DNA from: Candidatus Tenderia sp.
GTDB lineage: Bacteria; Pseudomonadota; Gammaproteobacteria; Tenderiales; Tenderiaceae
DNA: 43,731 nucleotides
NCBI GenBank assembly: GCA_043755075.1
Contig: JAYUTP010000253.1
Location: 1 to 43,731 of the forward strand
Direction of reading: 5' to 3'
Shown here piece by piece: positions 3,379 to 37,634 of this stretch. The notes beneath the pieces are model-generated. The model saw only the letters and a list, made by a program, of their open reading frames with translations, was not told the DNA's origin and searched no databases. Every line of letters begins with the position of its first letter. Positions within the stretch are counted from its first letter, which is position 1. The position numbers and the translations under genes are program-made.

Positions 3379-3412
3379 AAATAATAAGAGAACCAGATCC
3401 ATTATAAAAAAA

Positions 3413-3679: not shown

Positions 3680-3689
3680 AAATAAGTCC

Positions 3690-4979
3690 TCAAATAGAGT
3701 CTGGATAATCTGTCCCGGTAATCAATGCCCCTGAACGACTGGCATTGATAAAAGTGACCTGAGGATGCTGGGCGATGTAGCGCTCCAAGTCACGCATATA
3801 GCCACGCAGGTTTTTTGAGGTCAACACCTGATGGCCATGGCCATCCTCCAACCACTCCTGATACCCCAGCTGATCGGTAGCGACTTCAAAGACGGCGCCA
3901 GCAACATGGGTTCTGCTGCCCGGAAACGAGAAGTCACCCCCCATCAGCCAAAGCTGACGACTGCCCATCTTTACCGCTAGATCAACCGCAGCGTGAAACA
4001 CGGTGCCGGAGGCGTAGAGTATGCCTCTGGGATGTTGCAGCGCCAGTTGCTCATAGAGCGGGCTATTAGAGTAAGCGGCGTAACGCGGTCCTGGCCAATG
4101 CTCCATCACGGCACGATGCACAATCGGAAAGTAGACCAATGGCGTATTCGCCAGCAAGGAGAGATCAACATCAAAAAGTTTTATGATGTGGTCAGGTGCG
4201 CCATCGATAGTCACTACCACATCAGGAACGATACCGTTCTGCATTAGCGGTTTGAGCGCTGCATCAACCGCAAACAGATAGATGCCAGACTTGCGCTCAC
4301 GGAGCCGTTGATAGTGTTCACTCAATGATGGCCCGGCGCCCGCCACATAACAGCGCTGGTTTCCATAGCGACCAAAGAGTGAATCAACATCACCATCGGA
4401 TTTAACAAGTTCGACACTCGAAGCTATCTGCTGCTGGAATAGCGGATTACTCCTGACCCTGGCGTTGATATAGTCGGTATCAAGTTCCAGCACAATTTGA
4501 TCGCGCACTTTAGCCGCCATTGGATCAACAATTTTGAGACACGCTGGCACCACCGCAAACGGAACACGAATATCGGTGCGCGCAGTTGCCTGTGTCAGCC
4601 TGACGCGGTGATCTGCCAACCAATCACTCTGATCAAAATAATGCAGACAACTTCTGAAGAGTTCCAGATTCAGTATTACCACATCGAGCTGCTGCAACGG
4701 CTGACGTTGTAATAGTTCACGCTGTAAATCACCTGTCGCCACGCCATAGATCCATGCCGACGACGCGCCCTCCGCCACCCGAGTGGCCTGGAGTCTCGCC
4801 TCACGTTTGCTATCAAAACAACTGCTCAGGTGAATGCCATCCACCAGCAGGGTGGGCGCTTCCGTTTCACTGACAAAATGGGCTCGTTCTGCCGAATCAA
4901 GCAGGATGAGCGACTGATATAAGACCGGCCAGCGTCGTTCGATAATCGTCAGGTTACGCTGCAAAAATCCGCTGTCCAT
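3690..4979 (-). CDS. maf: Second Maf (DUF115/MptE-like) protein, short form lacking the C-terminal helical domain
   Basis: 429 aa. Maf-type N-terminus (FLQRNLTIIERRWPVLYQSL) and core CYVAGAGPSLSEHYQRL..IYLFAVDAALKPLMQNGIVPDVVVTIDG ... LWLMGGDFSF. Confidence 0.8.
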   Translation of the reverse strand: MDSGFLQRNLTIIERRWPVLYQSLILLDSAERAHFVSETEAPTLLVDGIHLSSCFDSKREARLQATRVAEGASSAWIYGVATGDLQRELLQRQPLQQLDVVILNLELFRSCLHYFDQSDWLADHRVRLTQATARTDIRVPFAVVPACLKIVDPMAAKVRDQIVLELDTDYINARVRSNPLFQQQIASSVELVKSDGDVDSLFGRYGNQRCYVAGAGPSLSEHYQRLRERKSGIYLFAVDAALKPLMQNGIVPDVVVTIDGAPDHIIKLFDVDLSLLANTPLVYFPIVHRAVMEHWPGPRYAAYSNSPLYEQLALQHPRGILYASGTVFHAAVDLAVKMGSRQLWLMGGDFSFPGSRTHVAGAVFEVATDQLGYQEWLEDGHGHQVLTSKNLRGYMRDLERYIAQHPQVTFINASRSGALITGTDYPDSI

Positions 4980-4985
4980 ACTCCC

Positions 4986-6953
4986 CTACTCCGCTGGCCT
5001 AAGTGTAAAAAAGAATCCCGGTAACTCACCGCCATCGCAGAATGATTCATCCAGTTCCGCTAGCGAAAAGACAATCTGCGTCAACGCGGTGGGTGAGCAC
5101 TCGCGATGATAGAGCATCGGAAATGCTGCACAGGCGGATGGCTGCCAATCGATCACCAGTCCCACCTGCTTATCCTTCACCGTAATTGAGCCGCTCTCTC
5201 CGCCTAATCCGTTAGTGACCGAGACCAACGTCGAAGCCGAGTGGGTATGAAATACATCGCGGTCGATCGCAAAAGACTCTACCAACTTGCCGCCATTGCG
5301 CGTCTGCACCGTTACTGCGCCAGAAAACGCCTCGGGCAAAAGGGTGATGAAGCCAGTTCTCACTGTGCCATAAGGACGTTTCCAGCCGGGAAATTCAACA
5401 CCACAGCCGACCTCTTCACCTGCCCGCGCGATACGTAGATGCTTGATAATATCACCCTCTTTAGTGGTCACTGCGGCACGCAGATAGAGGTAGCGGTCAT
5501 CGTAACGAATGTGCGCTTCAACACGCTCAAGATCAGTGATCCGTTTATGTTGCGTGACCTGTTCAATCACCGTGTTGGCGCTGTAAAAATCAGCGCCAAG
5601 ATCAATGGATGTGAAGTAGCCGTGAGGCAACGTACCAATAATTGGTGTCCAACCATGCCGTTTAAAAGCAAGGGCATCAATCGCCATGCCACGCCGCAGG
5701 TTCAGCCGCAATCGTAGTGTGGCGGTCGCAATGTCCAACATTATCCCTTCCGGGTCACGCGTCACTGTCACACCTTCACAGAGCCCTTGTGACGTTCCCA
5801 CCACCGGAAAAGCTTCATGCACACCGCCATCAAAATGGCTGTCGCTGCCCAACGCCGACAACAACCGCTGCACCTGATCACGCGCCTCGCCCCAACGTGT
5901 TGCGGTGATATGAGTACGAATATCACTTGCCCACAACTCGCAGAGTGTGCGCCACTTAGACTGATTCACACTGCCCCTCAAGCGCTGATAGAGGCGATGG
6001 CACATCGTATTGATCCACAAATCATCACGTCCGGTAATGGCCCAGCGGCTGACATTATATTTGGCCTGTTTTTTTACCACGATCGGCTGTGATACTGAGG
6101 TGAGGCAGAGCATTTCGCCAGAACTATGCGCCAGATGTTGATTCAGTGCTGTCGTGGGTAATACAAGTTCAATCGGGTAGTCATCTGCGAGTTTTTCGAT
6201 CAGCCCCGTTAAGCGCCGCCATTCACCTTCAGGATGAAGCTTCGATTCGACGTCATAACGGCCTGGTCGGTAATCAAATACCTCGGCATCATTGCAATAG
6301 AGCGCCAGCGGTACTCGATTGGTGGCCAGCCGCTTTTCGAAATAATCAAGATAGTCCACTAGGCGAATATCGCCGTGCATGTAGCGCTGAAGTTTCTGAA
6401 ATAGAATCGAATCAGACCAAAGCACTGGCAGCGTGATATTGCCTTCGTGATCACTGGCATGACTCGGCAGGTTCTCCGCATCCCAACTGCGACCATGGGC
6501 CAACGTCACATTATCGCGATCCATGATGATGCCCGCATAGCCGACATCCTGATACAGCTCTAGCATGCCGCTCGAATAAGCCATTTCGTTGACCAGCACC
6601 AGCGTCGGTTTTACACCTAGCAGTTCTGTATAAGTCTCCAAGCCGAGGTATTGATTCCACTGATTGACCTCAAAGGGAATCAACGGGCCAATGATCTGAC
6701 TGTAACCACTGCCAATCAACTCTGTACGCCCCTGCGCCAGCGCCGTTTTGAAACGTGTCACCCATTCAGGTGCCAGAGTATTTATCTGTAATAACGTCCA
6801 GCCGGTCAGTTCGATACCGATTTTAAAATCATGCTGCTCGATCAATTCAAGCAATGGTATATAACACGTCTTTATCACCGTCAGGCGTTGTTCTTCCGCG
6901 ATGGAGGAGTAAGCAAGATTGAGATGGAATATGGTAAACGCTTGTTTCATCAT
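4986..6953 (-). CDS. GH57-like glycoside hydrolase-fold protein (function unknown in this context)
   Basis: Strings resembling the GH57 conserved regions: FHLNLAYSS (HQP region), GRTELIGSGYSQIIGPL (GQLEI region), LVNEMAYS (nucleophile Glu region), YCNDAEVFDY (HDDGEKFG acid/base region), WASDIRTH. I trimmed the start to ATG 6953 (MMKQAF..), which forms an ATGA overlap with the stop of the upstream gene. The 26 codons upstream in the track ORF overlap that gene. Confidence 0.55.
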   Translation of the reverse strand: MMKQAFTIFHLNLAYSSIAEEQRLTVIKTCYIPLLELIEQHDFKIGIELTGWTLLQINTLAPEWVTRFKTALAQGRTELIGSGYSQIIGPLIPFEVNQWNQYLGLETYTELLGVKPTLVLVNEMAYSSGMLELYQDVGYAGIIMDRDNVTLAHGRSWDAENLPSHASDHEGNITLPVLWSDSILFQKLQRYMHGDIRLVDYLDYFEKRLATNRVPLALYCNDAEVFDYRPGRYDVESKLHPEGEWRRLTGLIEKLADDYPIELVLPTTALNQHLAHSSGEMLCLTSVSQPIVVKKQAKYNVSRWAITGRDDLWINTMCHRLYQRLRGSVNQSKWRTLCELWASDIRTHITATRWGEARDQVQRLLSALGSDSHFDGGVHEAFPVVGTSQGLCEGVTVTRDPEGIMLDIATATLRLRLNLRRGMAIDALAFKRHGWTPIIGTLPHGYFTSIDLGADFYSANTVIEQVTQHKRITDLERVEAHIRYDDRYLYLRAAVTTKEGDIIKHLRIARAGEEVGCGVEFPGWKRPYGTVRTGFITLLPEAFSGAVTVQTRNGGKLVESFAIDRDVFHTHSASTLVSVTNGLGGESGSITVKDKQVGLVIDWQPSACAAFPMLYHRECSPTALTQIVFSLAELDESFCDGGELPGFFFTLRPAE

Positions 6954-8707
6954 TCTCTCCTCAACAACGCCATCACGCGGGAGGCGAGTTTCACTGCGCC
7001 ATCGCAACCGTTCATTTTTTCTCCCGCACAAACAGCCAATTTTTTTGCGCTATTGGCATTCGTCATCAACTCCACCAATCCCTCCACCGCGCCTTCTGTA
7101 TTCAACGCTAATCTCGCCACATCCGCCGCTTTAAATGCCGCCATCTCCGCCTGTTGAGCATCAACGGGATGATAGGAAACCACCGGTTTTCCCAGCTTTA
7201 ATAGTTCAAACAGCGTAACGCCATAAGGGGTGATGGCGTAGTCGGATTCCATCATCAACTGCGATAAATTTTCTGGTGCTTGTTTAAGTTGCCAACTCAA
7301 ACGCGGTTTGGCTGGCAAGCTTGGAGATTTTGCATAAGGTCCTTGCACCCAAGTGATATTTGCTGTTGTTGGTAACAAACGGTCAAGCATCGCGGGCCAC
7401 AACTCGCCCAGGCCGTAATGATCACTGCCACCGGTCATAACAATCACTCGATTACCCTCGCTCCATTCGCGTGAGTTGAATGCCGGATCGATGAAGTAGT
7501 GATCCCAACCAAACGTTACTTTATTTACGCCCGCTTGTTTTAAATGACTGGGAGTGACATAAAACGAGGGAATATAAATCAGATCGAGCAGATCATGTTG
7601 TTCAAACAAACCATCCACAGCAACCGTGACAATCTGCTGCTGACGGAGTTGCGAAAGCAGCGCCGCAATATTGCCCGGCAGACGATCAACGGCAACATCA
7701 AACACTACCGCCTCAGGACGATAGGCCTCCATTCTTTTCAATAGCGTTTCACTGAATTTTTGCGGCGCAACAAAGGTGTGTGGCAGCAACGCTAATCCAG
7801 GGAGCGCCACCTCTCCGCCCACAATCATCAGCTCAACCCCGGCAGAGAAGTGATCTTGCAACGCCCGCGCCAGCCGCGTGGTTCTGCGCAGATGGCCTAG
7901 GCCAACCGCCTCGCCACACTGCGTCAGCAGCAGAATTTTTGCCGATTTATCCATGACGCCCTTCTGCCGCACCTGTTGATTGATCAGGCGCAACGGCTCA
8001 TCACGCTGTAACTCATCAATCACCCACGCCAATGAGACAATGGAATCATCTGCATGATGCTGATACCAACGTCGATAGACCTCCGCCATGAACTGATAGT
8101 CAGAGGGGGTATCGACAGAGATGCGCTGTTCGATGCGAGAGTAGATCTCGTCATCGTCAACCGTCACCACGGTCAGCGCCGTCGCCTTTTTCAGTGAGCT
8201 GCCGACATGCTCACGATCACTCGGCTCAGTCGCCAGCTCAACAAGCCGGTTCCAGGTCTTGAGTGGGTAAGGCATGAACCCTTCGTGCATTGTGCGATTT
8301 TCTGGGCTAGTAAATTTTAAGGAGACAACATCAGCCTCTGGTGCCATGAGCAGACCGTTGATCATGCGCGAGACAATGGTCGGCTCGATCAACGGTGAGT
8401 CACCGCAAAAATAGACGACGATCTGTGGTTGATATTGTTTGACGATGGCATCGACACGCCCCACTAGATCATTCACATCCCCGGCAAAGGCAAACACTGT
8501 TTTACCTGTTTGCCGCGCCCACTGCACCAGTGGCTGGTTGTACTCATCGGCAGTGGTGGCCAGCACAATCGCATCGAGTTCCGGGATCTTTTCCAGCCGT
8601 TCAAAGAGGCGAGCGATCAACGGCTTGTCGGCCAGGTCAAGCAGATGTTTACCCGGCAAACGGCTGGAGTTAAGACGGGCACCGATAACACCTAATACCT
8701 TGCTCAT
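6950..8707 (-). CDS. Fusion protein: SpsF/PseF-like cytidylyltransferase (N-terminal) + PseG/SpsG-like UDP-sugar hydrolase, GT28-type (C-terminal)
   Basis: The N-terminus VLGVIGARLNSSRLPGKHLLDLADKPLIARL is the ARxxSxRLPGK cytidylyltransferase signature. From about aa 255, KILLLTQCGEAVGLGHLRRTTRLARAL resembles the PseG N-terminal G-x-G-H-x-x-R motif. The C-terminal half is Rossmann-like. It is a single uninterrupted 585-aa ORF. Confidence 0.7.
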   Translation of the reverse strand: MSKVLGVIGARLNSSRLPGKHLLDLADKPLIARLFERLEKIPELDAIVLATTADEYNQPLVQWARQTGKTVFAFAGDVNDLVGRVDAIVKQYQPQIVVYFCGDSPLIEPTIVSRMINGLLMAPEADVVSLKFTSPENRTMHEGFMPYPLKTWNRLVELATEPSDREHVGSSLKKATALTVVTVDDDEIYSRIEQRISVDTPSDYQFMAEVYRRWYQHHADDSIVSLAWVIDELQRDEPLRLINQQVRQKGVMDKSAKILLLTQCGEAVGLGHLRRTTRLARALQDHFSAGVELMIVGGEVALPGLALLPHTFVAPQKFSETLLKRMEAYRPEAVVFDVAVDRLPGNIAALLSQLRQQQIVTVAVDGLFEQHDLLDLIYIPSFYVTPSHLKQAGVNKVTFGWDHYFIDPAFNSREWSEGNRVIVMTGGSDHYGLGELWPAMLDRLLPTTANITWVQGPYAKSPSLPAKPRLSWQLKQAPENLSQLMMESDYAITPYGVTLFELLKLGKPVVSYHPVDAQQAEMAAFKAADVARLALNTEGAVEGLVELMTNANSAKKLAVCAGEKMNGCDGAVKLASRVMALLRRE

Positions 8708-8711: not shown

Positions 8712-9926
8712 TCACTGCATTTCGATAATCACGGCGTCGATCACCGCTTGGGCACGGGCCACCGCCTCAGCCCGATCGCCCCCTAGGGTGATGACAAAAC
8801 CGGCGCGTTTGGTGTGATCACTCATCGTGCCAATACGCTCGCCGGGCTCGACAAAAAATCCGAGGCGATGAACCCATGGCTTAGTCGCAAATTCAGCAAC
8901 GCGATGAATCGTCTTCACTACCCCCGGCTCGGGAAAGAAATAACGGATTGCCACGCCCTTGTGCTGTGCTGGCAATAACATACTGGGATCGGGTGTTTCA
9001 CCCAACGCCAGCTGAATCGCCGCGCCGATCAGATCAACCTCAGTCCCGAGCGGCACTTGGTCGCTGGAAAACCAACCACCCGAGAGGCGTGCTGCAATTT
9101 CAATCACCTTCGGCCCCTCGGCCGTCATCACCATATCACCCTTGGCGATACCATTCATAATGCCCATAGAACGCCCAGCCTGCTCCGCCAGCGCGATGAT
9201 CGCTTGGCGCTCACTGCTGCTCAGGCGTGTGGGTTGTTCACCGCCATTCTCGATAATGTAAGGTGAAAAACGCTCCAAATATTCATAGTTGCGATCGACA
9301 AAACCCGAGGTGTAACCCACGCCACCCACCATCACACTCTCACTACTCACCTGCGGTCCGGTCAGATACTCCTCCACCATAACTCGGCCGGTGGCTGATT
9401 GTGATTTGGCATGTTGGTAGGCCCAGCTCAGATCAATAGATTCATTCAACAGCAACACGCCACGGGCTCCACGACTATCGACAGGTTTGATAACAAGTCG
9501 CGGGCCGCGCTCTTGCATGAACTGCTGCAACTGTTGCAGCGACAGTACTTGACTGAACCAGGGAATGGCGATGCCATCACGCGCGAAACGTTGCTTCATC
9601 AGCAGCTTGTCGGCGGCGAGATGGGCCGTCTCCAAACTCAGCCCCGGCAATCCCAAGGCATCCGCGACCGAGGCCACGGTCAACGGCACATCAGCAGCCA
9701 TGCAGATAACGCCATCAAGTTTGCAGCAAGTGTGATGATAGTCGCGAGCAATAGTAATCGTCTGTTCCACATCGTAGGTGCTGGCGATCAGGCGATCATC
9801 GGCAAACTCAAAGCCAGGCGCATCGGGGTTCATATCACTCACCACCACACGCAGTCCCATCGCCTTGGCACGTTTGATCCCTGGTACCGCCTCAGTACCG
9901 CCGCTGACTACCATTAAAGTTTTCAT
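8712..9926 (-). CDS. ATP-grasp family carboxylate-amine ligase
   Basis: 404 aa. Pre-ATP-grasp Rossmann region (MKTLMVVSGGTEAVPGIKRAKAMGLRVVVSD), LVIKPVDSRGARGV, VMVEEYLTGPQVS, VIEIAARLSGG. These match the ATP-grasp layout. Confidence 0.75.
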   Translation of the reverse strand: MKTLMVVSGGTEAVPGIKRAKAMGLRVVVSDMNPDAPGFEFADDRLIASTYDVEQTITIARDYHHTCCKLDGVICMAADVPLTVASVADALGLPGLSLETAHLAADKLLMKQRFARDGIAIPWFSQVLSLQQLQQFMQERGPRLVIKPVDSRGARGVLLLNESIDLSWAYQHAKSQSATGRVMVEEYLTGPQVSSESVMVGGVGYTSGFVDRNYEYLERFSPYIIENGGEQPTRLSSSERQAIIALAEQAGRSMGIMNGIAKGDMVMTAEGPKVIEIAARLSGGWFSSDQVPLGTEVDLIGAAIQLALGETPDPSMLLPAQHKGVAIRYFFPEPGVVKTIHRVAEFATKPWVHRLGFFVEPGERIGTMSDHTKRAGFVITLGGDRAEAVARAQAVIDAVIIEMQ

Positions 9927-9947: not shown

Positions 9948-11036
9948 TTAAGCTACACACCTGGCATATAAAACATAATCGAATGGACTTTGCCTGTGAT
10001 GCGCAAAATAGCAACGATAATCTGGGTTAATAGCATGGATCATCAATGGTACTTGCCACATATCATCGGGTTCATGATAGGCGCTAATTATCAGCCTTGG
10101 CCGATCACGCATCAAGGTTTCAGCCGCCCCTGCCAAGGCATTAACCTCAGAGCCCTCTATGTCCATCTTTATTACATCAACCTTCAAGCCTCGCTCTCGG
10201 GAAAAATCATCGATGCTGGTGACAGCTATTTTTTTATCACCGCTGTCTGAAACATGATATTGCATACTATTTTCAAGTGCGGTAGTAAAACTCAATGTAG
10301 TCGTCTCTTTCCACATTCCAAATTGACATGGAACTACCACTGAGTTTAATTTTTCCGCCTCGATAGTTACCAGCAATCTCTGATAATTATCGGCCTCCGG
10401 CTCGAATGAGTAGATAGTGCAATTTTTATCTAGCCCATGGGAAAATTCCAGAGCGCTATCCCCAGACCAGGCACCACCGTCGAGAATGACATCGCCTCTC
10501 TCTAGCGACACCAGTGGATGGTAATACTGTGGAAATTCAGCAGGGATAAAAAACTCGGAATCGAGGGTAAGGCGATATTTAAGCAAGGCCCGATAAGTGG
10601 CGCGTGATGACTCATCTGACATCAATGCATAAGCCGCTTCTATCTGCTCCGCCGCACCCAGTATCTGCTCCGGGACATAGTGTTTCTTCCATCGCTCAAA
10701 ATCAAAAGCAAATCCAAGATAAAAATATTTGACGCCCAATTGTTGCAGCTGTCTGCCAATATCCATACCCCAATCACTGGCCACAAACACAATAGTGTTT
10801 TGATAGTCTCGTAACTGTTCTGGGGCGATAATTGGAATGCCAGAGATGAGGCCACCCTGCCTTTGCCGGTCATTATCACAGACACAGACAATGGTGATGC
10901 CAAAGGATTGCAGTACGCGTATCGCATGCGTTCCACTACCTCCGGCACCAAAAACAATTGCCTGGCTAACATCACATAGGACATCATCTATCGCTAAAAA
11001 ACGATGCGAAATTTCTTCTAACAATTCACTTAGCAT
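9948..11036 (-). CDS. FkbM-family SAM-dependent methyltransferase with N-terminal Rossmann-like module
   Basis: C-terminal half: GDVILDGGAWSGDSALEF...IYSFEPEADNYQRL...VDVIKMDIEGSEVNALAGA (FkbM hallmark). N-terminal half: IVFGAGGSGTHAIRVLQSFGITIVCVCDNDRQRQGGLISGIPIIAPEQL. Confidence 0.75.
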   Translation of the reverse strand: MLSELLEEISHRFLAIDDVLCDVSQAIVFGAGGSGTHAIRVLQSFGITIVCVCDNDRQRQGGLISGIPIIAPEQLRDYQNTIVFVASDWGMDIGRQLQQLGVKYFYLGFAFDFERWKKHYVPEQILGAAEQIEAAYALMSDESSRATYRALLKYRLTLDSEFFIPAEFPQYYHPLVSLERGDVILDGGAWSGDSALEFSHGLDKNCTIYSFEPEADNYQRLLVTIEAEKLNSVVVPCQFGMWKETTTLSFTTALENSMQYHVSDSGDKKIAVTSIDDFSRERGLKVDVIKMDIEGSEVNALAGAAETLMRDRPRLIISAYHEPDDMWQVPLMIHAINPDYRCYFAHHRQSPFDYVLYARCVA

Positions 11037-11106: not shown

Positions 11107-12819
11107 TCAACGAGACCACATCTGATCCAATGTCTGGCCTGCCAGAAGCATCGGCGTTATATCTTCCTCTTCATCAATGACACAGTGAACCAACGCCGGG
11201 CCATGATGGGCAAATGCCTCTTGCAGCGTCGCCTCCACTGCCCCACTCTCACGTATCGTGAAGGCACGAATACCATACCCTTCGGCAATCACAGCGAAGT
11301 CTGGATTCCACTTGTTACCGGTGGTGGGATCATCTTGCCAGTTAAAATTCTGAAACTGCGAGACGATGCCGAGTCGGTGATTATCAAGCACGATAATTTT
11401 CACCGGCAGATTGTGTTCCGCCACGGCGCCCAGCTCCTGCATGTTCATCTGCAACGATCCATCACCGACAAAACAGAGCACCAATGCATCCTTGTCCTGT
11501 AGCTGTGCACCCACTGCACTCGGCAAATCGTAACCCATCGCGCCGTGGCCACCCGATGTCAACAGTGCGCGCCGTGGATAATCAAAGCTGAAGTGGCGCG
11601 CCACCCAGTGTTGATGAGAACCGACGCCAGTGACAGCCAGCACGCGCTGGCCACGACTCAGACGATCAGCTGTTTCCACCACCCACTGCGGTTTGAATCG
11701 GCTGTGTTGGTCATAGCTCAGGGCGTACTCTTGCCGCCAGGCATCAATCTGTTGAAGCCATGCTGACCACTGTGGCAGTTTCACTGTTTTCAATTCCGGC
11801 AGCAGTGGCAGCAGCGCCAGCAACGCCGCTTTGGCATCGGCATTGATCAACAAGTCGGTGCGTACCCGGCCATGTTTTGCCTCATTGGCATCAAGGTCGA
11901 TACGCACAATCCTGGCACCCGGTGCAAAACGGTCAAACTGATTGCCGGTCTGGCGCACATCGAGACGCGAGCCAATTGCGATGACCAGATCGGCATTCTG
12001 GATCGCCTTGCCCGCATACTGATTGCCGGTGTGACCGTGGAAGCCCAAGGACAACTCTGAATCGGATGGCATCGCCCCCAGCCCGAGCAGCGAGTGGGAA
12101 ACGGGGATGCTATAAGTGGTCGCCAGCATGCGCAACTCTTCATGCGCCTGTGCCAGCAATACCCCCTGGCCAGCGATAATGATCGGGCGCTGCGCGTTAT
12201 TCAGCCATGCAGCTAGCTGCGCGATGCCAGAGAAGATGCCAGCGAGATCGCTATCCTGTTGCTGCATTTTCAATATTGGCAGCACTACGGCAGGAGCCGA
12301 TAGTTCACCACGCTGCACATTCATCGGCATGTCGATCAGCACCGGGCCAAAGCGGCCACTGCTGGCGATATAAAATGCCTGATCCATCACCCGTGCCAGA
12401 TCGTCCTGATGCTCGACCAAAAACTGCGCCTTGGTGATTGATGCCATCAGGGCACAACTATCGACCTCCTGAAAGCCGCGCTGCCGTACTGGCAGGTCAC
12501 GTTTGAGATCGCCGGTTCCAACCTGACCCGTAATCACGATCAACGGCGTATTGTCAAAATAGGCGTCAGCCACGGCGGTTATAAGATTGGTGACACCCGG
12601 CCCGGAGGTGACCATCACTACCTGCGGTTGCATTCTCAGCCGCGATACCGCCAATGCCGCGTAACCCGCCCCCTGTTCGTGACGGCCACAAAAAATATCC
12701 AGCCCTCTATTTTTAGCCTCGTGAAGAATCGGTGCGATAGTGCCACCTGGATAAACATAGAGCCGTTCACAGTCGTGGCGAACGAACGCATCAACAATAA
12801 CTTCAACACCTGTTGTCAT
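11107..12819 (-). CDS. Thiamine-diphosphate-dependent enzyme, acetolactate synthase large-subunit-like
   Basis: 570 aa. N-terminal Pyr domain (YVYPGGTIAPILHE...RHEQGAGYAALAVSRL...TSGPGVTNL). C-terminal ThDP motif GDGSLQMNMQELGAVAEHNLPVKIIVLDN (GDG-X-N type). Confidence 0.85.
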   Translation of the reverse strand: MTTGVEVIVDAFVRHDCERLYVYPGGTIAPILHEAKNRGLDIFCGRHEQGAGYAALAVSRLRMQPQVVMVTSGPGVTNLITAVADAYFDNTPLIVITGQVGTGDLKRDLPVRQRGFQEVDSCALMASITKAQFLVEHQDDLARVMDQAFYIASSGRFGPVLIDMPMNVQRGELSAPAVVLPILKMQQQDSDLAGIFSGIAQLAAWLNNAQRPIIIAGQGVLLAQAHEELRMLATTYSIPVSHSLLGLGAMPSDSELSLGFHGHTGNQYAGKAIQNADLVIAIGSRLDVRQTGNQFDRFAPGARIVRIDLDANEAKHGRVRTDLLINADAKAALLALLPLLPELKTVKLPQWSAWLQQIDAWRQEYALSYDQHSRFKPQWVVETADRLSRGQRVLAVTGVGSHQHWVARHFSFDYPRRALLTSGGHGAMGYDLPSAVGAQLQDKDALVLCFVGDGSLQMNMQELGAVAEHNLPVKIIVLDNHRLGIVSQFQNFNWQDDPTTGNKWNPDFAVIAEGYGIRAFTIRESGAVEATLQEAFAHHGPALVHCVIDEEEDITPMLLAGQTLDQMWSR

Positions 12820-12835
12820 GATTCAAATTCCATCT

Positions 12836-14092
12836 TTAATAACGTGATGTTCTGTCATAGAGCGCGATGATTCTTGATTCTGCCACTCCCTTCTCCTGCA
12901 ACACATTGAGCAGGCTTTCCTGGCCACCATAAGTGGAAATCACTATCGGAAAGCTGTCGCTGCACCACGCCTGCTCCGGGATCTGTTCGGGCGACAACAC
13001 CGGCAACGAATGGTAGTGGTGCCCCTGCTTCAGCGGATCACTATCCACCAGAACATAACTGGCATCCAGATCAAACAGGCGCGTCAGCAGTGCCAGATAT
13101 TCAGTGTGCTGCCCTGCGCCCCAGATCATGATCTGCCGCGCACTATGCAAATTTTCGATGCGGCGTCTCACCAGTTCTACGTTGTTTTTCCACACATCAA
13201 GATAGGTGCGTGCCGCAACCAAACCGCTGGCATCATGGCCAACATCTGCCTGAATCTGACCATGCTCTGCCACCACCCGCCAGCCGTTGTAGCCCTCCAT
13301 CGCCTCGCCATGAACAATGCGCCAACCATTTTTTGCCAGCAGTCGTTTCAGCGAGGTCTTACTAAAATGCGTGAGATGCTGCACGGTGAAGAAGCCAACA
13401 ATATCGCGATCCTGTAACTCGGCGGCACGATCCACCACCGGCACCTCGATCACCAACGCAACAGAATGCTTCGACAAGCTGTGAAGCTGGGCCAGAAAGC
13501 CATCGGGATCGGGCAGGTGTTCAAGTACGTGAAACATGGTGATCACATCCACCTGCGGCAGACTCTCCAAGCCATTAAAATCGCAGCGCGTAAAGTTGAT
13601 GCCGGGGGCATCGTGCGCCACGTTGCTAAGCGTTTGTTCATCGACATCAATACCGTAACGCGACAATGTCTGCGGCAGCGCCTTGAGCAGATCGCCATTC
13701 CCACACCCCACATCCATCAGTGATTCTGCCGCTGGGAAGCGTTCACTCAACCACGTCACCTGTTCACCGATGCGCCCGGCGGTGTGGCCATAACTGCAAC
13801 CCGCCTTGTCAAACAGCACCTGAAACCCTGTTGGGGTGTAACAAGGATTGGTGTAGATCAGGCCACACTGTTGGCAACAGACCACGCGATGATCGGCGCG
13901 ATTGCGGCCATCCTGGTCGGTAAAAAACTGAAAATCGTTCAGGGCGAAGAGTTCATCTTCAGCACTGCTCTGACATAAGGGGCAGTGACGAAACGTTTGT
14001 AGTGGCTCACTGCTGGCACTGCGCTGTAAACGCATTACCTTGGTCCATGGCAACTCATTCATATTTATCATCTCGCCATTATCTTGCATCAT
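12836..14092 (-). CDS. Class I SAM-dependent methyltransferase with N-terminal Cys4 zinc ribbon and C-terminal Rossmann-like module (sugar C-/N-methyltransferase-like architecture)
   Basis: CPLCQS...CCQQCGLIYTNP (zinc ribbon), LMDVGCGNGDLLKAL (SAM motif I), VDVITMFHVLEHLPDP, then IMIWGAGQHTEYLALL...DSDPLKQGHHYHSLPVLSPEQI. The first ATG overlaps the upstream stop (ATGA). A downstream Met start is also possible. Confidence 0.7.
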   Translation of the reverse strand: MMQDNGEMINMNELPWTKVMRLQRSASSEPLQTFRHCPLCQSSAEDELFALNDFQFFTDQDGRNRADHRVVCCQQCGLIYTNPCYTPTGFQVLFDKAGCSYGHTAGRIGEQVTWLSERFPAAESLMDVGCGNGDLLKALPQTLSRYGIDVDEQTLSNVAHDAPGINFTRCDFNGLESLPQVDVITMFHVLEHLPDPDGFLAQLHSLSKHSVALVIEVPVVDRAAELQDRDIVGFFTVQHLTHFSKTSLKRLLAKNGWRIVHGEAMEGYNGWRVVAEHGQIQADVGHDASGLVAARTYLDVWKNNVELVRRRIENLHSARQIMIWGAGQHTEYLALLTRLFDLDASYVLVDSDPLKQGHHYHSLPVLSPEQIPEQAWCSDSFPIVISTYGGQESLLNVLQEKGVAESRIIALYDRTSRY

Positions 14093-15156
14093 CTTGAAGG
14101 TACCGACATTCCGTTTCGCGGCAGAGGAAAATTAATTTCAGTGCCCCCTTGTTGCTGGGAGTGGTAGAAAGCGAGCGCCATTTCCAGTGCGGTGCGTGCC
14201 TCTTTTGCAGTTGATGCCACACGCAGGCACTCTTTATTTCCGAGCAACGCCGCCACTGCGGAATCCCAGGCAGTTCCCTCATAGGCAGAGGGTGGCATGT
14301 TAATCGTGGTCGGTAGCAATTCATCAAAGCCACTCATGCGTGCGCTTGAGGCAGGACGATAAAGCGAGAGGCCGTCATTACCGATTCTGATCCGCCCTTT
14401 AGTGGCGACGATATCGAACTCGAAGATGAAGTAATTCTTTACCTGTCCTTCGATAGTAGCGACTACACCATTGGCAAAGTAAAACTGCCCGACACCGCCA
14501 GCATCGGCCAATTTTTTAGCGCTGTAACGATAACCGCTCTGCTTATCTTTTTTGGCTTTGATGACCACCCTTCCCTGCGCCGCCAGCGGCTCACCAAACC
14601 ACCAGTGCAATACATCAAAGGCATGGGTACCGGTGTGAATCAGACTGCCGGAGAAGAGCACGTTGACGGAAAGAACGCGGCCAATGGTCTCGTTGTCGAT
14701 CATCCACTTCACCTGCTGGTAATCGTTGGACCAGCGCCGCATGTGGCCGGTAACAAGCAGGGTCTTACTCTTGGCGAGTGCATCCACCATCTCATCCGCC
14801 TGCTCCAGCGATGTCGCCAATGCTTTTTCACAGAAGATGGCCGGTATTTTGTGATTGATCGCTGCCATCACCATCTCGTGGCGCTCGGTGGCATAAGCCG
14901 AGATGCTGAGCAGATCAATCCGTTCCTCTGCCAGCATCTGGCGGTAATCATGATAAAGCGCATCAACACCATAACGTTCGGCAAACTCGCGACGCGCCTT
15001 CTCATCCACATCACTGCCGGTCTGAATCCGGCAACCATGTTTGAGATAGCCACCGACATGGGTACAGGGTTTAACGCGTAATAGATCATTTTCCATTCGC
15101 CAAGCGATGCGACCCAGTCCGATGATTGCTGCGTGTGGTTCATCATTCATCCTCAT
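14089..15156 (-). CDS. Gfo/Idh/MocA-family NAD(P)-dependent oxidoreductase
   Basis: AAIIGLGRIAWRM..., ...YHDYRQMLAEERIDLLSISAYATERHEMVMAAINHKIPAIFCEKALATSLEQADEMV is the typical EKP-type motif region. 4-nt overlaps with both neighbours. Confidence 0.8.
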   Translation of the reverse strand: MRMNDEPHAAIIGLGRIAWRMENDLLRVKPCTHVGGYLKHGCRIQTGSDVDEKARREFAERYGVDALYHDYRQMLAEERIDLLSISAYATERHEMVMAAINHKIPAIFCEKALATSLEQADEMVDALAKSKTLLVTGHMRRWSNDYQQVKWMIDNETIGRVLSVNVLFSGSLIHTGTHAFDVLHWWFGEPLAAQGRVVIKAKKDKQSGYRYSAKKLADAGGVGQFYFANGVVATIEGQVKNYFIFEFDIVATKGRIRIGNDGLSLYRPASSARMSGFDELLPTTINMPPSAYEGTAWDSAVAALLGNKECLRVASTAKEARTALEMALAFYHSQQQGGTEINFPLPRNGMSVPSR

Positions 15157-15917
15157 CCCATGTACAACCCACCGTTGATGTTGAGTGTTTGACCGGTGAT
15201 GTAGCTCGCCTTGTCCGAGAGCAGATAGGCAATGGCATTGGCCACCTCCTGCGCTTCTCCAGCACGGGCCAGTGGTACATGCAGAGCGATTTTGTCGCGA
15301 CCGACATCGGAATTTAGTTCGCCTTGAGTCATCTCGGTGACGATCAAACCGGGTGAAACACAGTTGGCGCGAATAGCATTGGCCGCACCAACCCGTGCCA
15401 GCGATTTAGTCAGCGCGATAATGCCTGCTTTGGTAACGGCGTAATGCACGGCCAACATACCACCGAGCTGTCCACCCGATGAGGCGACATTGACGATTAC
15501 GCCGCCCTTTCCCACCATGCGCACCATGATTTCCTGCGAACAGATAAAGGCCCCTTTGAGATTGACATCGATCATGCGATCCCAATCTTCATCGGTAATA
15601 GTGGCGAAGGGTTTTTGTTGCAAAATGCCCGCGTTATTCACCAGCCCATGGATGGCACCGCAACGTTGCATTGCGACATCCATTGCCCCTTGCACCTGCT
15701 GGCGATCAACGATATTAACCTGACGGCAGACCAGCGGGACTGCAAACTGCTGCAACTGCGCTGCTGCACTCTCGGCATCAGACTTGCGACTGTTGTACCA
15801 AAGTTCCAGAGCGTAGCCCTGTGCCGCTAGAACTTTGGCCGTGGCAAGACCAATGCCACGTGTTCCGCCCGTAATGATGACCAGTGCTGGTGATTGCTCC
15901 ATTGCATTACTCTCCAT
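15153..15917 (-). CDS. Short-chain dehydrogenase/reductase (FabG-like)
   Basis: VIITGGTRGIGLATAKVLA (TGxxxGxG), NNAGI, and a catalytic S...YxxxK pattern (ASSGG...YAVTKAG). Confidence 0.85.
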   Translation of the reverse strand: MESNAMEQSPALVIITGGTRGIGLATAKVLAAQGYALELWYNSRKSDAESAAAQLQQFAVPLVCRQVNIVDRQQVQGAMDVAMQRCGAIHGLVNNAGILQQKPFATITDEDWDRMIDVNLKGAFICSQEIMVRMVGKGGVIVNVASSGGQLGGMLAVHYAVTKAGIIALTKSLARVGAANAIRANCVSPGLIVTEMTQGELNSDVGRDKIALHVPLARAGEAQEVANAIAYLLSDKASYITGQTLNINGGLYMG

Positions 15918-15924: not shown

Positions 15925-16791
15925 TTAACGCTGTTGCCACTCGTCGCGAATATTCTGTAGCGGCCGCAATCCATCCTTGGGATCGGCGCGCCAATCGCGA
16001 TCAGCCAACTCGGCGACTGACGGCACTTTGCAACCATCACCATCCGCCGTGAGACCACGTTTTAGGGTAGTGATAACCTCGGCCATCTGCGCTGGCAACC
16101 AACAGTGTCCCGCCGCGTACTCCGCTCCCTTGGCATCGAGATCGAGGTGAAATTCGATCAACTCAGCAGCCCAATGATAGATGGCGCGATAGATCACGGC
16201 GGGATCGACGGTGTGATCAGACCAACCGACTGTACACGCGGCGGCGTCACGAATCGTGGCGATAGCCGCCAGATTGCAATCCTTGGCCAGCGTTGGATAG
16301 GCAGAGACGCAGTGCAGCAGCGCCAACTCCTTACCGCCCGCATTGCGCATCACCTGCATGGCATGGCTAATCTCAGGCAGGATCGCCATGCCGGTGGAGA
16401 GGATGACGGGTTTGCCGGTATCGACACACTTGACCAGCAACTCATCCCACAGCAGTTCATAAGAGGCGATCTTGTAAAAATCAACATAAGGCAGCAGCTC
16501 ATCAACGGCTTCAAGATAGAAGGGTGTACAGCTAAATTCTATTTTTTTCTGTTGGCAGCGTTCATAAAGTTTCGGCAGGAATTCTAGCGGCAACTCCCAC
16601 TCCTGGCGTTTGCGATGGGCCTCACTCTTGGCCAGGATCACCGGGGCAAAGAGTTGATCGATCTTGAAGAGCTGGAATTTAACGGCATCGCAGCCAATCT
16701 CGGCAGCGGCATCGATGAAGTCAAGGCAACGAATCAGATCACGACTATGGTTGCTGGAGACCTCGGCAATAAATTTTGGCATCTGTTTCAT
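15925..16791 (-). CDS. NeuB/PseI-family nonulosonate (sialic-acid-type) synthase homologue, TIM-barrel domain only (no SAF domain)
   Basis: FIAEVSSNHSRDLIRCLDFIDAAAEIGCDAVKFQLF, YKIASYE, GKPVILSTGMA, LLHCVSAYP and GWSDHT match the NeuB barrel. The protein ends at 288 aa, without the approx 60-aa C-terminal SAF/antifreeze-like domain. Confidence 0.7.
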   Translation of the reverse strand: MKQMPKFIAEVSSNHSRDLIRCLDFIDAAAEIGCDAVKFQLFKIDQLFAPVILAKSEAHRKRQEWELPLEFLPKLYERCQQKKIEFSCTPFYLEAVDELLPYVDFYKIASYELLWDELLVKCVDTGKPVILSTGMAILPEISHAMQVMRNAGGKELALLHCVSAYPTLAKDCNLAAIATIRDAAACTVGWSDHTVDPAVIYRAIYHWAAELIEFHLDLDAKGAEYAAGHCWLPAQMAEVITTLKRGLTADGDGCKVPSVAELADRDWRADPKDGLRPLQNIRDEWQQR

Positions 16792-17924
16792 GATACTGCC
16801 TCATCCTTTACCGCAGTGATTACTTCTTCCACCTGAACATCACTCATCCCTGGATAAATCGGCAGTGATAAAAGTTCGGTAAAAACCTGCTCCGCGACAG
16901 GACACTGACCGGCATGTGCACCAAAACGTTCGCGATAAAAGCGATGCAGATTAAGTGGCAGATAGTGGACGTTGACGCCAATATCACGCTGGCGCAGCGC
17001 CGTAAATAACTCATCACGGGTTTTTCCAAACTGGCTGACATCAACCCGAATCGCATAGAGATGGTAGCCATGAGACACCCCCGCTCGGGTGGCCAGCGGC
17101 GTAACTCCAGCAACTGCGGCAAAGGCGTTGTCGTACTGCGCTGCAATCTGCTGGCGCCGTTTAATCCAGCCATCAAGCTTGTTCAGCTGCGAAATACCCA
17201 GGGCACAGAGGATATCGGAGATGCGGTAGTTGTAACCCAGCGAAACCATTTCATAGAACCACTGCCCGGCTGCTTCACGCTGGCGGCTATCGTTGTCGAT
17301 GCCGTGATTACGGAAACGGCGCATGGCGCGCCATAACGACTCATCATCGGTGACAATCATGCCACCCTCGCCAGTGGTGATGGGCTTTACTGGATGAAAA
17401 CTGAATGTGGTTAAATCGGCTAACTGCCCAACCTTGCCAAACTCAGACGAGGCACCGAGTGAGTGGCTGGCATCGGCCACTAATATCAGGTTGTGGCGAT
17501 TGGCGATGGTTTTCAACGCCGCGTAGTCACACGGCTGACCGGCGTAATCAACGGCGATAATCGCCTTGGTCTTTGACGTAATTTTTGACTCTACCGAAGC
17601 GGGATCGATCAGCAGAGTGTCGCGTTCAACATCGGCAAAGACTGGGGTGCCATTCTGAAAGACAACGGCATTAGCCGTCGCCACGAAGGTGATGGCAGGC
17701 ACGATCACCTCGTCACCGGGGCCAATCCCGGCTGCCACGGCGGCACAGTGCAGAGCGGCAGTACCGTTGCAAACTGCCAGGGCATGACGGGTACCGACAT
17801 AAGCGGCAACATTATGTTCGAACTCATCCACCTTGGGACCGGTAGTCAACCAATCCGATTCCAATGTTGCGGTGACCGCAGCCACATCATCGCCGCTGAT
17901 GGATTGGCGGCCATAGGGGATCAC
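16788..17924 (-). CDS. pseC: UDP-4-amino-4,6-dideoxy-N-acetyl-beta-L-altrosamine transaminase (DegT/PseC family)
   Basis: MIPYGRQSI..D..AV...L.SDWLTTGPKV..FE plus FSFHPVKPITTGEGGMIVTDDESLWRAMRRFRNHGI. These closely parallel the Helicobacter/Campylobacter PseC motifs, including the PLP lysine. Confidence 0.85.
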   Translation of the reverse strand: MIPYGRQSISGDDVAAVTATLESDWLTTGPKVDEFEHNVAAYVGTRHALAVCNGTAALHCAAVAAGIGPGDEVIVPAITFVATANAVVFQNGTPVFADVERDTLLIDPASVESKITSKTKAIIAVDYAGQPCDYAALKTIANRHNLILVADASHSLGASSEFGKVGQLADLTTFSFHPVKPITTGEGGMIVTDDESLWRAMRRFRNHGIDNDSRQREAAGQWFYEMVSLGYNYRISDILCALGISQLNKLDGWIKRRQQIAAQYDNAFAAVAGVTPLATRAGVSHGYHLYAIRVDVSQFGKTRDELFTALRQRDIGVNVHYLPLNLHRFYRERFGAHAGQCPVAEQVFTELLSLPIYPGMSDVQVEEVITAVKDEAVS

Positions 17925-18919
17925 AATCCCAGCTCCCGATTTAGCTCAACTAGCTGTGGTACTGTCAGGAATTCAGCGTTGTTGCCGGAGCTGTAGTAAA
18001 ACCCCTGCTCCACAATTTTGCCCTTCTCGCCCATACGATTAGTTTCAAAATTGACACTTCTGAACATCTGGATGGTGGGACAGATGACGTAGTGGTCGCC
18101 AAAGTCGAGTGTCAGATGAGAATCATCAGCGGGACACATTATTTCGTGCAGTTTTTCGCCGGGACGGATGCCAACAAATTCGGCCGGCATGCCGGGTGCA
18201 ATCGACTCCGCCAGATCCATAATCCTGATCGACGGGATCTTCGGCACAAAGAGTTCGCCACCCTGCATGCGCTGGAAATTTTTCAACACAAAATCGACTC
18301 CCTGTTGCAGGGTAATCCAGAAACGGGTCATACGTTCATCGGTAATCGGCAGTGCGTGTGCCCCCTCGGCAATAATTTTTCTAAAGAATGGCACGACTGA
18401 ACCACGAGACCCCACGACATTGCCATAACGCACCACTGAAAAGCGGCACTGGCGCGAACCGACGATGTTGTTGGCGGCAATAAACAGTTTGTCCGAGGCG
18501 AGTTTGGTGGCTCCATAGAGGTTGACCGGGTTGGCGGCCTTGTCGGTAGAAAGAGCGATTACCTTCTCGACGTTATTTTCCAACGCGGCCTCGATCACAT
18601 TCTGGGCACCGTGAATATTAGTCTTGATGCACTCCATCGGATTATATTCAGCCGCAGGTACATGTTTGAGGGCGGCGGCGTGGATAATAAAGTCGACATT
18701 ACGCGTCGCCTGTTTAAGGCGGTCGCCATCACGGACATCACCGATAAAGTAGCGCATCATCGGGCCGTTGTAGTGCTGCTGCATCTCGTACTGCTTCAGT
18801 TCATCACGAGAGTAGATGATCAACCTAGCGGGCTTGTAGCGTTCAAGCAGGGTTTTGATATAACGCTGGCCAAAGGAACCCGTGCCACCGGTGATTAGTA
18901 TCGATTTTCCATTAAACAT
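17921..18919 (-). CDS. pseB: UDP-N-acetylglucosamine 4,6-dehydratase (inverting), PseB/FlaA1
   Basis: SILITGGTGSFGQ, IIYSRDELKQYEM, YFIGDVRD, HAAALKHVPAAEYNP, STDKAANPVNLYGATKLASDKLF. This is the PseB signature set. Confidence 0.9.
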   Translation of the reverse strand: MFNGKSILITGGTGSFGQRYIKTLLERYKPARLIIYSRDELKQYEMQQHYNGPMMRYFIGDVRDGDRLKQATRNVDFIIHAAALKHVPAAEYNPMECIKTNIHGAQNVIEAALENNVEKVIALSTDKAANPVNLYGATKLASDKLFIAANNIVGSRQCRFSVVRYGNVVGSRGSVVPFFRKIIAEGAHALPITDERMTRFWITLQQGVDFVLKNFQRMQGGELFVPKIPSIRIMDLAESIAPGMPAEFVGIRPGEKLHEIMCPADDSHLTLDFGDHYVICPTIQMFRSVNFETNRMGEKGKIVEQGFYYSSGNNAEFLTVPQLVELNRELGL

Positions 18920-36793: not shown

Positions 36794-36804
36794 TTTACTA
36801 CAAA

Positions 36805-36831
36805 GGTGTGCCAACATTGCATTGGCACACC
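36805..36831. terminator. Perfect 10-bp hairpin between convergent DUF934 gene and dsbC (likely bidirectional terminator)
   Basis: GGTGTGCCAA-cattgca-TTGGCACACC. The minus-strand reading is followed by TTTGTAGTAAA. There is no clean T-run on the plus strand. Confidence 0.55.
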
Positions 36832-36841
36832 ACACTAACTG

Positions 36842-37561: not shown

Positions 37562-37634
37562 CCAACCATTCCTTATTCAAATAGATAACGTTGTGAGTGC
37601 ATTATACCTAAGGAGTTCAATTCCATTGGGCAAA

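Follow-up and report, generated by a model that had tools for sequence, protein, structure and literature searches.

The window analysed here is a contig of Candidatus Tenderia sp. (JAYUTP010000253.1, taken over its whole length of 43,731 nt), in which one long minus-strand operon beside flagellar genes encodes a thiamine diphosphate (ThDP)-dependent enzyme together with the enzymes of a pseudaminic acid (Pse) pathway. The best explanation of this locus, to which we give a probability of about one half, is that the ThDP enzyme and a short-chain dehydrogenase/reductase (SDR) belong to a cassette that builds a hydroxy-acid side chain, and that an ATP-grasp ligase joins this acid to N7 of Pse. 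The broader assignment, a PseH-less pathway to substituted Pse for flagellin of the type encoded by the sfm genes of Shewanella oneidensis MR-1, has in our estimate roughly even odds as well. The open reading frames (ORFs) of the window were submitted to domain searches and judged by profile cutoffs, and window coordinates count over the whole 43,731-nt stretch.

For the individual steps we infer the substrates, the order and the amide linkage as follows. PseB and PseC, both recognised at equivalog level, make UDP-4-amino-4,6-dideoxy-L-AltNAc as the core, and no N-acetyltransferase is present. The ThDP enzyme would decarboxylate pyruvate and transfer the resulting activated C2 unit to the carbonyl group of an acceptor that also bears a carboxylate, the SDR would reduce the new ketone, and the methyltransferases, a zinc-ribbon enzyme (ZnMT) and an FkbM-family enzyme, would methylate the product, while a Gfo/Idh/MocA oxidoreductase would add a further redox step in this lineage. 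The ATP-grasp ligase would then join the finished hydroxy acid to the 4-amino group, the later N7 of the nonulosonate, and thereby replace PseH. A PseG-like domain, a short NeuB-family synthase (NeuBs) and a CTP-transferase domain would complete CMP-Pse5Ac7(acyl), whose sugar two Maf proteins would transfer to flagellin. In this scheme the ThDP enzyme and the SDR would act as one interchangeable tailoring cassette, setting the far end of the side chain.

The strongest evidence that the ThDP enzyme and the SDR are a tailoring cassette, and not a part of the sugar core, is the replacement of the cassette in loci that were found by sampling the module also through its non-ThDP genes. In two cultured bacteria, Methylotuvimicrobium sp. 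KM2 (L092, CP150634.1, 12054-13873) and Geoalkalibacter ferrihydriticus (L093, 5665-7442), the position of the ThDP gene between the methyltransferases and the SDR is taken by a split transketolase with an N-terminal subunit of 268-280 aa and a pyrimidine/C-terminal subunit of 322 aa. The other genes of these two loci, the GH57-like gene among them, are orthologous to those of the window: NeuBs is 63-65% identical, SDR 43-46%, ZnMT 35-37%, the ATP-grasp ligase 62% (Geoalkalibacter) and 42% (Methylotuvimicrobium), and the FkbM enzyme 41% (Geoalkalibacter). In a metagenome-assembled genome of Gallionella (L095, 4392-8122), a polysaccharide pyruvyl transferase and an unrelated 418-aa Gfo/Idh/MocA protein flank the ATP-grasp gene, and this module contains no ThDP enzyme and no SDR. 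Thus, the conserved requirement is addition of a C2 (or C3) unit and then a redox step, beside a constant ligase. We tentatively propose, at somewhat less than even odds for the whole statement, a widespread and so far unrecognised route by which sialic-acid-like sugars are diversified, in which a PseH-less constant core (PseB, PseC, ATP-grasp, NeuBs, PseG-like, GH57-like and CMP-transferase) works with interchangeable C-C/C-O cassettes (AHAS-like ThDP enzyme plus SDR, split transketolase plus SDR, or pyruvyl transferase plus Gfo; AHAS, acetohydroxyacid synthase) in the assembly of N7-acyl chains that are long, methylated and rich in hydroxyl groups. Such a chain would end in a methyl group where the ThDP carboligase acts, and in a hydroxymethyl group where the transketolase does.

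To describe the module beyond the window, about 17 loci with a member of the ThDP subfamily were examined, from seven lineages: Gemmatimonadota, Actinomycetota, Alphaproteobacteria (including Rhizomicrobium), Gammaproteobacteria (Glaciecola), Aerophobetes, Chlorobiaceae and a Methanothrix-like archaeon. It turned out that the ThDP, SDR and ATP-grasp genes are contiguous or nearly so in these loci, and that the ThDP gene has near-constant company: NeuBs, a GH57-like protein, PseB, PseC, a CTP-transferase, a PseG-like protein and one or two methyltransferases. NeuBs is 46-65% identical to the window's protein in related loci, and the GH57-like protein 37-53% (73% in the close relative L089). No related locus lacks the ATP-grasp gene, even where the ThDP gene is missing, and wherever there is a ThDP or transketolase gene the SDR gene lies beside it or close by. 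One locus, 65% identical, has exactly the gene order of the window except that Gfo and FkbM are missing, and lies in an O-antigen setting; another (L091) has a five-gene SDR-methyltransferase-ThDP-ATP-grasp-GH57 sub-module with no Pse genes within 10 kb. The same genes in conserved order in unrelated genomes mean that the arrangement is not due to chance. Since the module lies in flagellar clusters of the Maf type and of the alphaproteobacterial type (FlaF/FlbT), in lipopolysaccharide (LPS) loci and in an archaeal glycan locus, it is biosynthetic and not specific to flagella.

The comparison also redraws the limits of the module. The original prediction had treated the genes between the NeuB-like synthase and the FkbM methyltransferase (SDR, Gfo/Idh/MocA, ZnMT and ThDP enzyme; 11107-15917) as one block, and this four-gene block is ruled out as a functional unit. 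Its Gfo member is a lineage-specific accessory gene, found only in the window and in its 83%-identical relative L089, with no homologue in the other related loci; FkbM, also accessory, occurs elsewhere only in L089 and the Geoalkalibacter locus. The constant partners ATP-grasp, NeuBs, GH57-like protein and CTP-transferase/PseG-like fusion all lie outside the block.

Two of the related genomes show further peculiarities. L089 (GCA_021731365.1) has four extra genes between PseC and NeuBs (2890-6039), namely an Fe-alcohol dehydrogenase, ORFs of 171 aa and 155 aa, and a full-length NeuB of 353 aa. The two ORFs are possibly a split ThDP decarboxylase, although only the 155-aa one has a weak TPP_enzyme_C match. 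With the extra full-length NeuB, this locus has two NeuB-family genes, and it may make a second or a different nonulosonate. Besides, the archaeal-type metagenome contigs L086 and L087 from JGI contain the whole module, with a ThDP enzyme 60% identical to that of the window, adjoining a Polysacc_synt-family (flippase-type) gene and other glycan genes; the cluster member P0127 is named Methanothrix sp. This archaeal occurrence suggests that the module also serves purposes other than flagella, and that it has passed between domains or is very old.

The ThDP enzyme itself matches PF02776, PF00205 and PF02775. The original prediction took the protein to be active from its cofactor motif, and this holds: the catalytic Glu48, G452-D-G-S455 (codons at 11455-11466) and N480 of L478-D-N480 (11380-11388) are invariant across the subfamily, so that the enzyme looks catalytically intact. 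Its nearest characterised relatives are AHAS large subunits. AHAS structures in the PDB match with 320-338 bits (E 1e-94 to 1e-99), whereas the YerE-like JanthE (PDB 8RPH) gives 205 bits (E 2e-59), and the AHAS matches are also well above those to glyoxylate carboligase, AlsS and Xsc. Nevertheless, the protein stays below the equivalog cutoffs, with 492.7 bits against 538.35 for TIGR00118 (AHAS large subunit) and 355-451 bits against 738-1084 for the PRK AHAS equivalogs.

The subfamily is populous and tight (more than 100 clusters, 55-84% identity). A genome-collection scan with its alignment returned 80 loci, only nine of which hold true members; housekeeping ilvB saturated the scan, as IlvB fits one of the two patterns used as well. 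The Shewanella sfm locus is absent among these 80 loci, and no Shewanella-named protein is among the homologue matches listed. Identity between the subfamily and 71 IlvB proteins taken from genome loci is 31-41%, against a mean of 59% within the subfamily. The protein does not cluster with ilvB, an outcome that would have refuted the original prediction. A diagnostic six-residue, Arg-rich insertion lies within residues 103-114 (12478-12513), directly before the FQE motif, and the following R112, Q113 and R114 are invariant. About 60 of the 71 IlvB loci have an ACT-domain small subunit (163 aa) directly downstream, whereas none is directly downstream in the window or in any subfamily locus, where the next gene is FkbM, ATP-grasp or SDR. 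In an alignment to yeast AHAS, Glu139, Phe201, Gln202 and Arg380 (Arg289 here) are retained, while Lys251 is replaced by Met166, Asp379 by Val288 and Trp586 by Phe489. In yeast AHAS, Arg380 binds the acceptor carboxylate. The low identity to AHAS, the insertion, the lack of a small subunit and the residue changes together indicate a specialised paralogue, which, judged from the retained residues, probably still adds a decarboxylated 2-keto acid to a carboxylate-bearing acceptor.

The function of such a module is known genetically from one organism. In S. oneidensis MR-1, the flagellin modification operon sfmABCDE (SO_3261-SO_3265; Bubendorfer et al. 2013, PMC3765264) encodes a NeuB-domain protein of 290 aa, an IlvB-like TPP enzyme of 581 aa, an SDR of 255 aa, a SAM (S-adenosylmethionine) methyltransferase of 395 aa and an ATP-grasp protein of 412 aa; the window counterparts have 288, 570, 254, 418 and 404 aa. 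In-frame deletions of sfmA to sfmD returned flagellin to its unmodified size (PMC3765264). The sfmA, sfmB and sfmD mutants had no filaments and the sfmC mutant was partial, while the sfmE (ATP-grasp) mutant kept filament and swimming, with a slightly smaller flagellin shift; growth was unaffected by deletion of the ThDP gene. In Shewanella pseC is required too, and the surroundings include pseB, pseC, a Maf-1 with tetratricopeptide repeats (TPR), a Maf-2 without them and the small adaptor gene glfM. The Shewanella glycan consists of a 274 Da mono-N-acetyl Pse (oxonium ion C11H19N2O6+), with Pse-like H3/H4 nuclear magnetic resonance signals, and a nitrogen-free unit of 236 Da, C9H16O7, whose 250 and 264 Da forms carry O-methyl groups. 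The structure of the 236 Da unit was not settled in the Shewanella papers of 2023 and 2025, and a literature search on Pse with acetolactate synthase, thiamine or ATP-grasp found only the Shewanella paper.

By arithmetic, the free compound corresponding to the 236 Da unit, C9H18O8, has one degree of unsaturation. This fits a saturated acyclic polyhydroxy acid, which could leave as a lactone and would then explain the free ion at 275. Many isomers fit the formula, such as 3,9-dideoxynononic acid, O-methyl-3-deoxyoctonic acid and O-methyl-8-deoxyoctonic acid, and we claim no particular structure.

The genes of the window operon and its convergent neighbour are as follows, in the order of transcription of the operon.

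17921-18919, minus strand: PseB, inverting UDP-GlcNAc 4,6-dehydratase, with which the operon begins (TIGR03589, 549 bits against a cutoff of 408).
16788-17924, minus strand: PseC aminotransferase, overlapping PseB by 4 nt (TIGR03588, 451 bits against a cutoff of 423.5).
15925-16791, minus strand: NeuBs, short NeuB-family synthase of 288 aa (PF03102, E 7.5e-57).
15153-15917, minus strand: SDR, FabG/BudC-like classical type, 254 aa (adh_short_C2, E 5e-58; alternative start at 15902).
14089-15156, minus strand: Gfo/Idh/MocA oxidoreductase (PF01408, E 4e-16; alternative start at 15150).
12836-14092, minus strand: ZnMT, three-domain methyltransferase of 418 aa (Methyltransf_23, E 2e-20; zinc ribbon at about 13865-13984).
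11107-12819, minus strand: AHAS-like ThDP enzyme, 570 aa (three TPP domains, E 1e-30 to 1e-45).
9948-11036, minus strand: FkbM-family methyltransferase (PF05050, E 6e-17), with an N-terminal C2185-like_N/PglD_N-like domain (PF22674).
8712-9926, minus strand: ATP-grasp carboxylate-amine ligase of the L-amino-acid-ligase type, 404 aa (LAL_C2, E 2e-16; ATP-grasp_3).
6950-8707, minus strand: fusion of a CMP-sugar synthetase and a PseG-like domain, 585 aa (PF02348, CTP_transf_3, E 2e-22; TIGR03590 over residues 257-521, E 1e-12, below cutoff).
4986-6950, minus strand: GH57/GH38-fold protein, 654 aa (PF03065, E 3e-12).
3690-4979, minus strand: Maf-2-like flagellin nonulosonate glycosyltransferase without TPR (MptE-like, E 2e-33).
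3413-3679, minus strand: ORF of 88 aa, candidate GlfM-type adaptor by its position, with no Pfam match.
814-3378, plus strand: Maf-1-like glycosyltransferase with C-terminal TPR (MptE-like, E 9e-42; TPR_19).

The operon starts 332 nt 3' of flgL, and flgA, cheV, cheR, flgB-L, flgM and flgN lie upstream of it. It runs from PseB through PseC, NeuBs, SDR, Gfo/Idh/MocA, ZnMT and the ThDP enzyme to FkbM, ATP-grasp, the CTP-transferase/PseG-like fusion, the GH57-like protein, Maf and the 88-aa ORF, and the TPR-bearing Maf is convergent on the opposite strand, just past the final gene. A scan for promoters and terminators gave no count exceeding the shuffled expectation that would divide the operon. 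The order SDR, Gfo, methyltransferase and ThDP enzyme that was originally read from the letters is confirmed by strong domain matches of minus-strand ORFs at the coordinates given. As for the proposed translational coupling, the 4-nt overlap of Gfo and methyltransferase and the 16-nt gap before the ThDP gene stand, while the overlap of SDR and Gfo depends on the starts chosen: the 4 nt (ATGA) belong to the longest ORFs only, and public gene callers start the SDR five codons and Gfo two codons later, which leaves a 2-nt gap. A similar choice concerns the GH57-like gene, whose longest ORF (4986-7031) has a TTG start and an 82-nt overlap with the upstream gene, the public calls using the ATG at 6950. 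The far end of the window (34597-43704) is housekeeping, with sulfite/nitrite reductase, DUF934, DsbC, an XerD-like integrase, Ogt, TrmD, RimM and Ffh, and with a 607-aa ORF (39066-40889) that has no Pfam match.

PseB and PseC are identified at equivalog level, and the product of PseC is UDP-4-amino-4,6-dideoxy-L-AltNAc. No PseH or other GNAT acetyltransferase was found in the scanned ORFs of the 43.7-kb window, nor in the Pfam-annotated related loci. NeuBs, presumed to be the nonulosonate synthase and the counterpart of SfmA ('PseI'), has the TIM barrel only, without SAF domain, and reaches 162 bits against cutoffs of 340 (PseI) and 400 (NeuB). The PseG-like domain scores 48 bits against 153.6 for TIGR03590, and for the PseF-type activity there is the generic CTP_transf_3 match only. 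The CMP-sugar synthetase and PseG-like domains are fused in the window and several relatives, and are separate genes in L085, L086, L092 and L094. The ATP-grasp protein, which among PDB entries matches the L-amino acid ligase BL00235 best, is presumed to be the side-chain ligase and the counterpart of SfmE. The SDR shows the motifs TGxxxGxG, NNAG and YxxxK of the classical small-molecule type.

The GH57-like proteins form a uniform family of about 650 aa, mostly annotated as "hypothetical", with 1624 relatives at E <= 1e-20. For the window's member, an AlphaFold2 (AF2) model (mean per-residue confidence, pLDDT, 85.6) was compared by Foldseek, and the top match was the 4-alpha-glucanotransferase of T. 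litoralis (5e-21), followed by GH38 mannosidases; by eye, GH57 regions III and IV are apparently retained (NEMAY, NDAEVF). Public contigs have the 88-aa ORF annotated as a gene and it is conserved in L089; by analogy of position it may be the GlfM adaptor that the Shewanella Maf-2 needs.

The ZnMT has three domains, a Cys4 zinc ribbon (C37-x2-C40...C73-x2-C76, with cysteines at least 90% conserved in 37 homologues), a class I SAM domain and a C-terminal Rossmann-like domain (C2185-like_N/Methyltransf_14-like). Searches of the PDB and Pfam with the single sequence recognised a generic class I domain only, and Pfam Methyltransf_13 (zinc) and Methyltransf_14 (C-terminal) gave no match at E up to 5. 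With the AF2 model (pLDDT 92.6), the top 18 Foldseek matches were all MtmC, TcaB9 and KijD1 over the full length (E 1e-21 to 2e-17, about 420-435 aligned columns, template modelling score 0.62-0.67), whereas the next matches (E about 1e-11) covered the methyltransferase core only. The family profile likewise matches MtmC (positions 27-379, E 4.8e-10), in an alignment that begins with the zinc ribbon and includes the C-terminal domain. The invariant His192 and His239 align with the 'AH' and 'EH' histidines of MtmC; Gln238 stands in place of the MtmC Glu, and there is no conserved Tyr two residues before it. The catalytic residues of TcaB9 are Tyr76, His181, Tyr222, Glu224 and His225, of which we take His225 to correspond to ZnMT His239. 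A motif D-x-D-x2-K-x-G is conserved in the C-terminal domain.

From the full-length fold match, the ZnMT has the architecture of C-methyltransferases for nucleotide-ketosugars (C-3-methyltransferases in the case of TcaB9, KijD1 and MtmC), the three domains, with a C-terminal one of the nucleotide-binding type, and the Cys4 zinc site being common although identity is only 16-20%. This model-based likeness suggests a nucleotide-linked substrate. It is the methyltransferase, and not the ThDP enzyme, that hints most strongly at action on a nucleotide sugar. On the other hand, the methyls of the Shewanella glycan are O-methyl and not C-methyl groups, and C-methylation by the ZnMT is not established. 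Some ZnMT homologues have PF22674 annotated at their C-terminus, and the N-terminal domain of FkbM here is of this type too. The FkbM gene itself differs in composition from its neighbours (GC content 0.450 against 0.51-0.56; GC at third codon positions 0.421 against 0.54-0.62) and is flanked by gaps of 70 nt and 21 nt; it is an optional add-on and probably a recent insertion.

Several points weigh against ligation of a finished acid. Shewanella mutants without the ATP-grasp protein are less severely affected than those without the ThDP enzyme or the methyltransferase; if the ThDP enzyme only fed the ligase, its mutant and that of the ligase should be alike, so an extra assumption is needed, for example a mis-acylated dead-end intermediate. 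The architecture of the ZnMT is that of enzymes for nucleotide-linked ketosugars rather than free acids. The model names no acceptor substrate and gives the GH57-like protein no step. Equivalence with SO_3261-3265 is drawn from architecture and published lengths, and the glycan composition is that of Shewanella only. The phenotypes would be expected if the order were reversed, that is, if the ATP-grasp enzyme attached a small carbonyl acid to the nucleotide-linked 4-amino sugar and the ThDP enzyme, SDR and ZnMT then extended, reduced and methylated the N-acyl chain in place: loss of the ligase would leave the bare 274 Da core (mild), and loss of the ThDP enzyme could leave a stranded intermediate (severe), which matches Shewanella. 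Such an order would also suit the MtmC/TcaB9/KijD1 fold of the ZnMT with its C-terminal motif and invariant His239, the FkbM enzyme with the same type of accessory domain, the Arg-rich insertion of the ThDP enzyme with R112 and R114 beside the FQE active-site motif, and an ATP-grasp identity that does not track the cassette, with 62% for the Geoalkalibacter locus, which has a transketolase, and 37-38% for the AHAS-like Rhizomicrobium loci. However, the SDR is a 250-aa classical enzyme and not of the extended type usual for nucleotide sugars, the O-methyl groups of Shewanella do not indicate C-methyltransferase chemistry, and we know of no precedent for an AHAS-like enzyme acting on the N-acyl chain of a nucleotide sugar. 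We consider this reversed order unlikely.

Less probable still is a branching of the sugar skeleton in the manner of YerE/YerF, which the original prediction had offered as the alternative to an acid for the ATP-grasp enzyme. In this reading a ketosugar, either the 4-keto product of PseB or a different one, would receive a two-carbon acyl branch from the ThDP enzyme, and reduction of the branch by the SDR would lead to a branched nonulosonate. YerE-like precedents exist, the set of ThDP enzyme, reductase, methyltransferase and phosphoenolpyruvate-aldol-type enzyme is present here, the ZnMT resembles NDP-4-ketosugar C-methyltransferases, split transketolases have been proposed in the literature to branch ketosugars, and Shewanella needs the ThDP enzyme and the methyltransferase no less than the synthase. 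Yet the Shewanella core ion C11H19N2O6+ is exactly unbranched mono-N-acetyl Pse, and the C4 ketone is consumed by transamination, since PseC is conserved everywhere and required in Shewanella. The cassette can be replaced by pyruvyl transferase plus Gfo, and the L091 sub-module does without nearby Pse genes. The analogy to YerE is weak as well, with 337 bits to AHAS against 205 to JanthE and the acceptor-carboxylate Arg289 retained. A housekeeping branched-chain AHAS (ilvB/ilvI/ilvG) that lies in the operon by chance, which the best family and structure matches to biosynthetic AHAS large subunits might have suggested, is ruled out by the sub-cutoff TIGR00118 score, the 31-41% identity, the missing small subunit, the Pse synteny across phyla and the Shewanella phenotype. 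Of the two alternatives first proposed, synthesis of an acid for the ATP-grasp enzyme is thus the better supported, by the ThDP and SDR genes beside ATP-grasp, the L091 sub-module and the C9H16O7 unit of Shewanella, with the mutant phenotypes and the ZnMT fold counting against it.

On flagella, pili, capsules and S-layers, nonulosonic acids influence how cells move, how the immune system recognises them and how phages attach. The side chains of these sugars are highly diverse, and the enzymes responsible are mostly not known. The Shewanella module was shown to be essential for flagellin modification 13 years ago, and the role of its ThDP enzyme and its 236 Da substituent can now be tested. The comparison defines the true module, its apparent great age, its spread across domains and cultured carriers of the transketolase variant, and adds the AHAS paralogue family, the displacement by transketolase or pyruvyl transferase, the TcaB9-like methyltransferase and the GH57-like partner. 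It also yields a prediction for mass measurements, +16 Da for a CH2OH end relative to a CH3 end. If the proposal of a constant core with interchangeable cassettes holds, this would be the first function for the new AHAS paralogue family and for the uncharacterised GH57-like family, and would account for the 236 Da unit seen on Shewanella flagellin. What's more, a ThDP carboligase dedicated to sialic-acid-like sugars would be of interest to biocatalysis and to glyco-engineering with promiscuous Maf transferases.

Among known systems, AHAS (PDB 1N0H, 1YBH, 6LPI) shares with the window's ThDP protein the three-domain ThDP fold, the Glu of HEQG, GDGS...N, FQE and the acceptor Arg, whereas the window's protein has no regulatory subunit, stays below the equivalog cutoffs, carries the insertion and belongs to a subfamily nearly always found in nonulosonate clusters. 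YerE-like enzymes, with an adjacent reductase, aldolase and sometimes methyltransferase, build acyl-branched sugars. Their pathways (YpYerE, ErwE, MMAR_2332, JanthE) have in common with the window a ThDP carboligase with an NAD(P)H reductase, an available 4-keto nucleotide sugar, often an aldol-type enzyme and a methyltransferase, and a surface-glycan cluster; the SDR beside the ThDP gene and the UDP-4-ketosugar of PseB are YerF-like features but do not discriminate. The window's protein differs by being nearer to AHAS, by its obligatory ATP-grasp partner and by an acceptor that probably bears a carboxylate and is not an isolated ketone. Of the canonical pathway of PseB, C, H, G, I and F, the window has PseB and PseC, and lacks PseH, a SAF-bearing PseI and equivalog-level PseG and PseF.

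The closest likeness is to sfm. Both have the same five protein types and sizes, a flagellar cluster, pseB and pseC, two Mafs, a small ORF and no clear PseH, while the gene order differs and the window block has Gfo/Idh/MocA and FkbM in addition. Likened in this way by architecture, lengths and context, the window locus can be regarded as an sfm-type system with two extra tailoring genes. The original prediction called the chemistry unusual for a flagellin glycan, and unusual it is, but S. oneidensis sfmABCDE provides the genetic precedent: the arrangement has been known from Shewanella since 2013 and is not a new kind of system. For the product, the flagellin nonulosonate of Treponema denticola offers a chemical parallel, with an amide-linked 2-methoxy-4,5,6-trihydroxyhexanoyl group on N7. 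It is of the product class predicted here, an O-methylated polyhydroxy acid in amide linkage. Its chain ends in HOCH2-CHOH-CHOH, as expected from the joint action of a transketolase and a ketoreductase, whereas the AHAS-like enzyme of the window would lead to a methyl-terminated chain.

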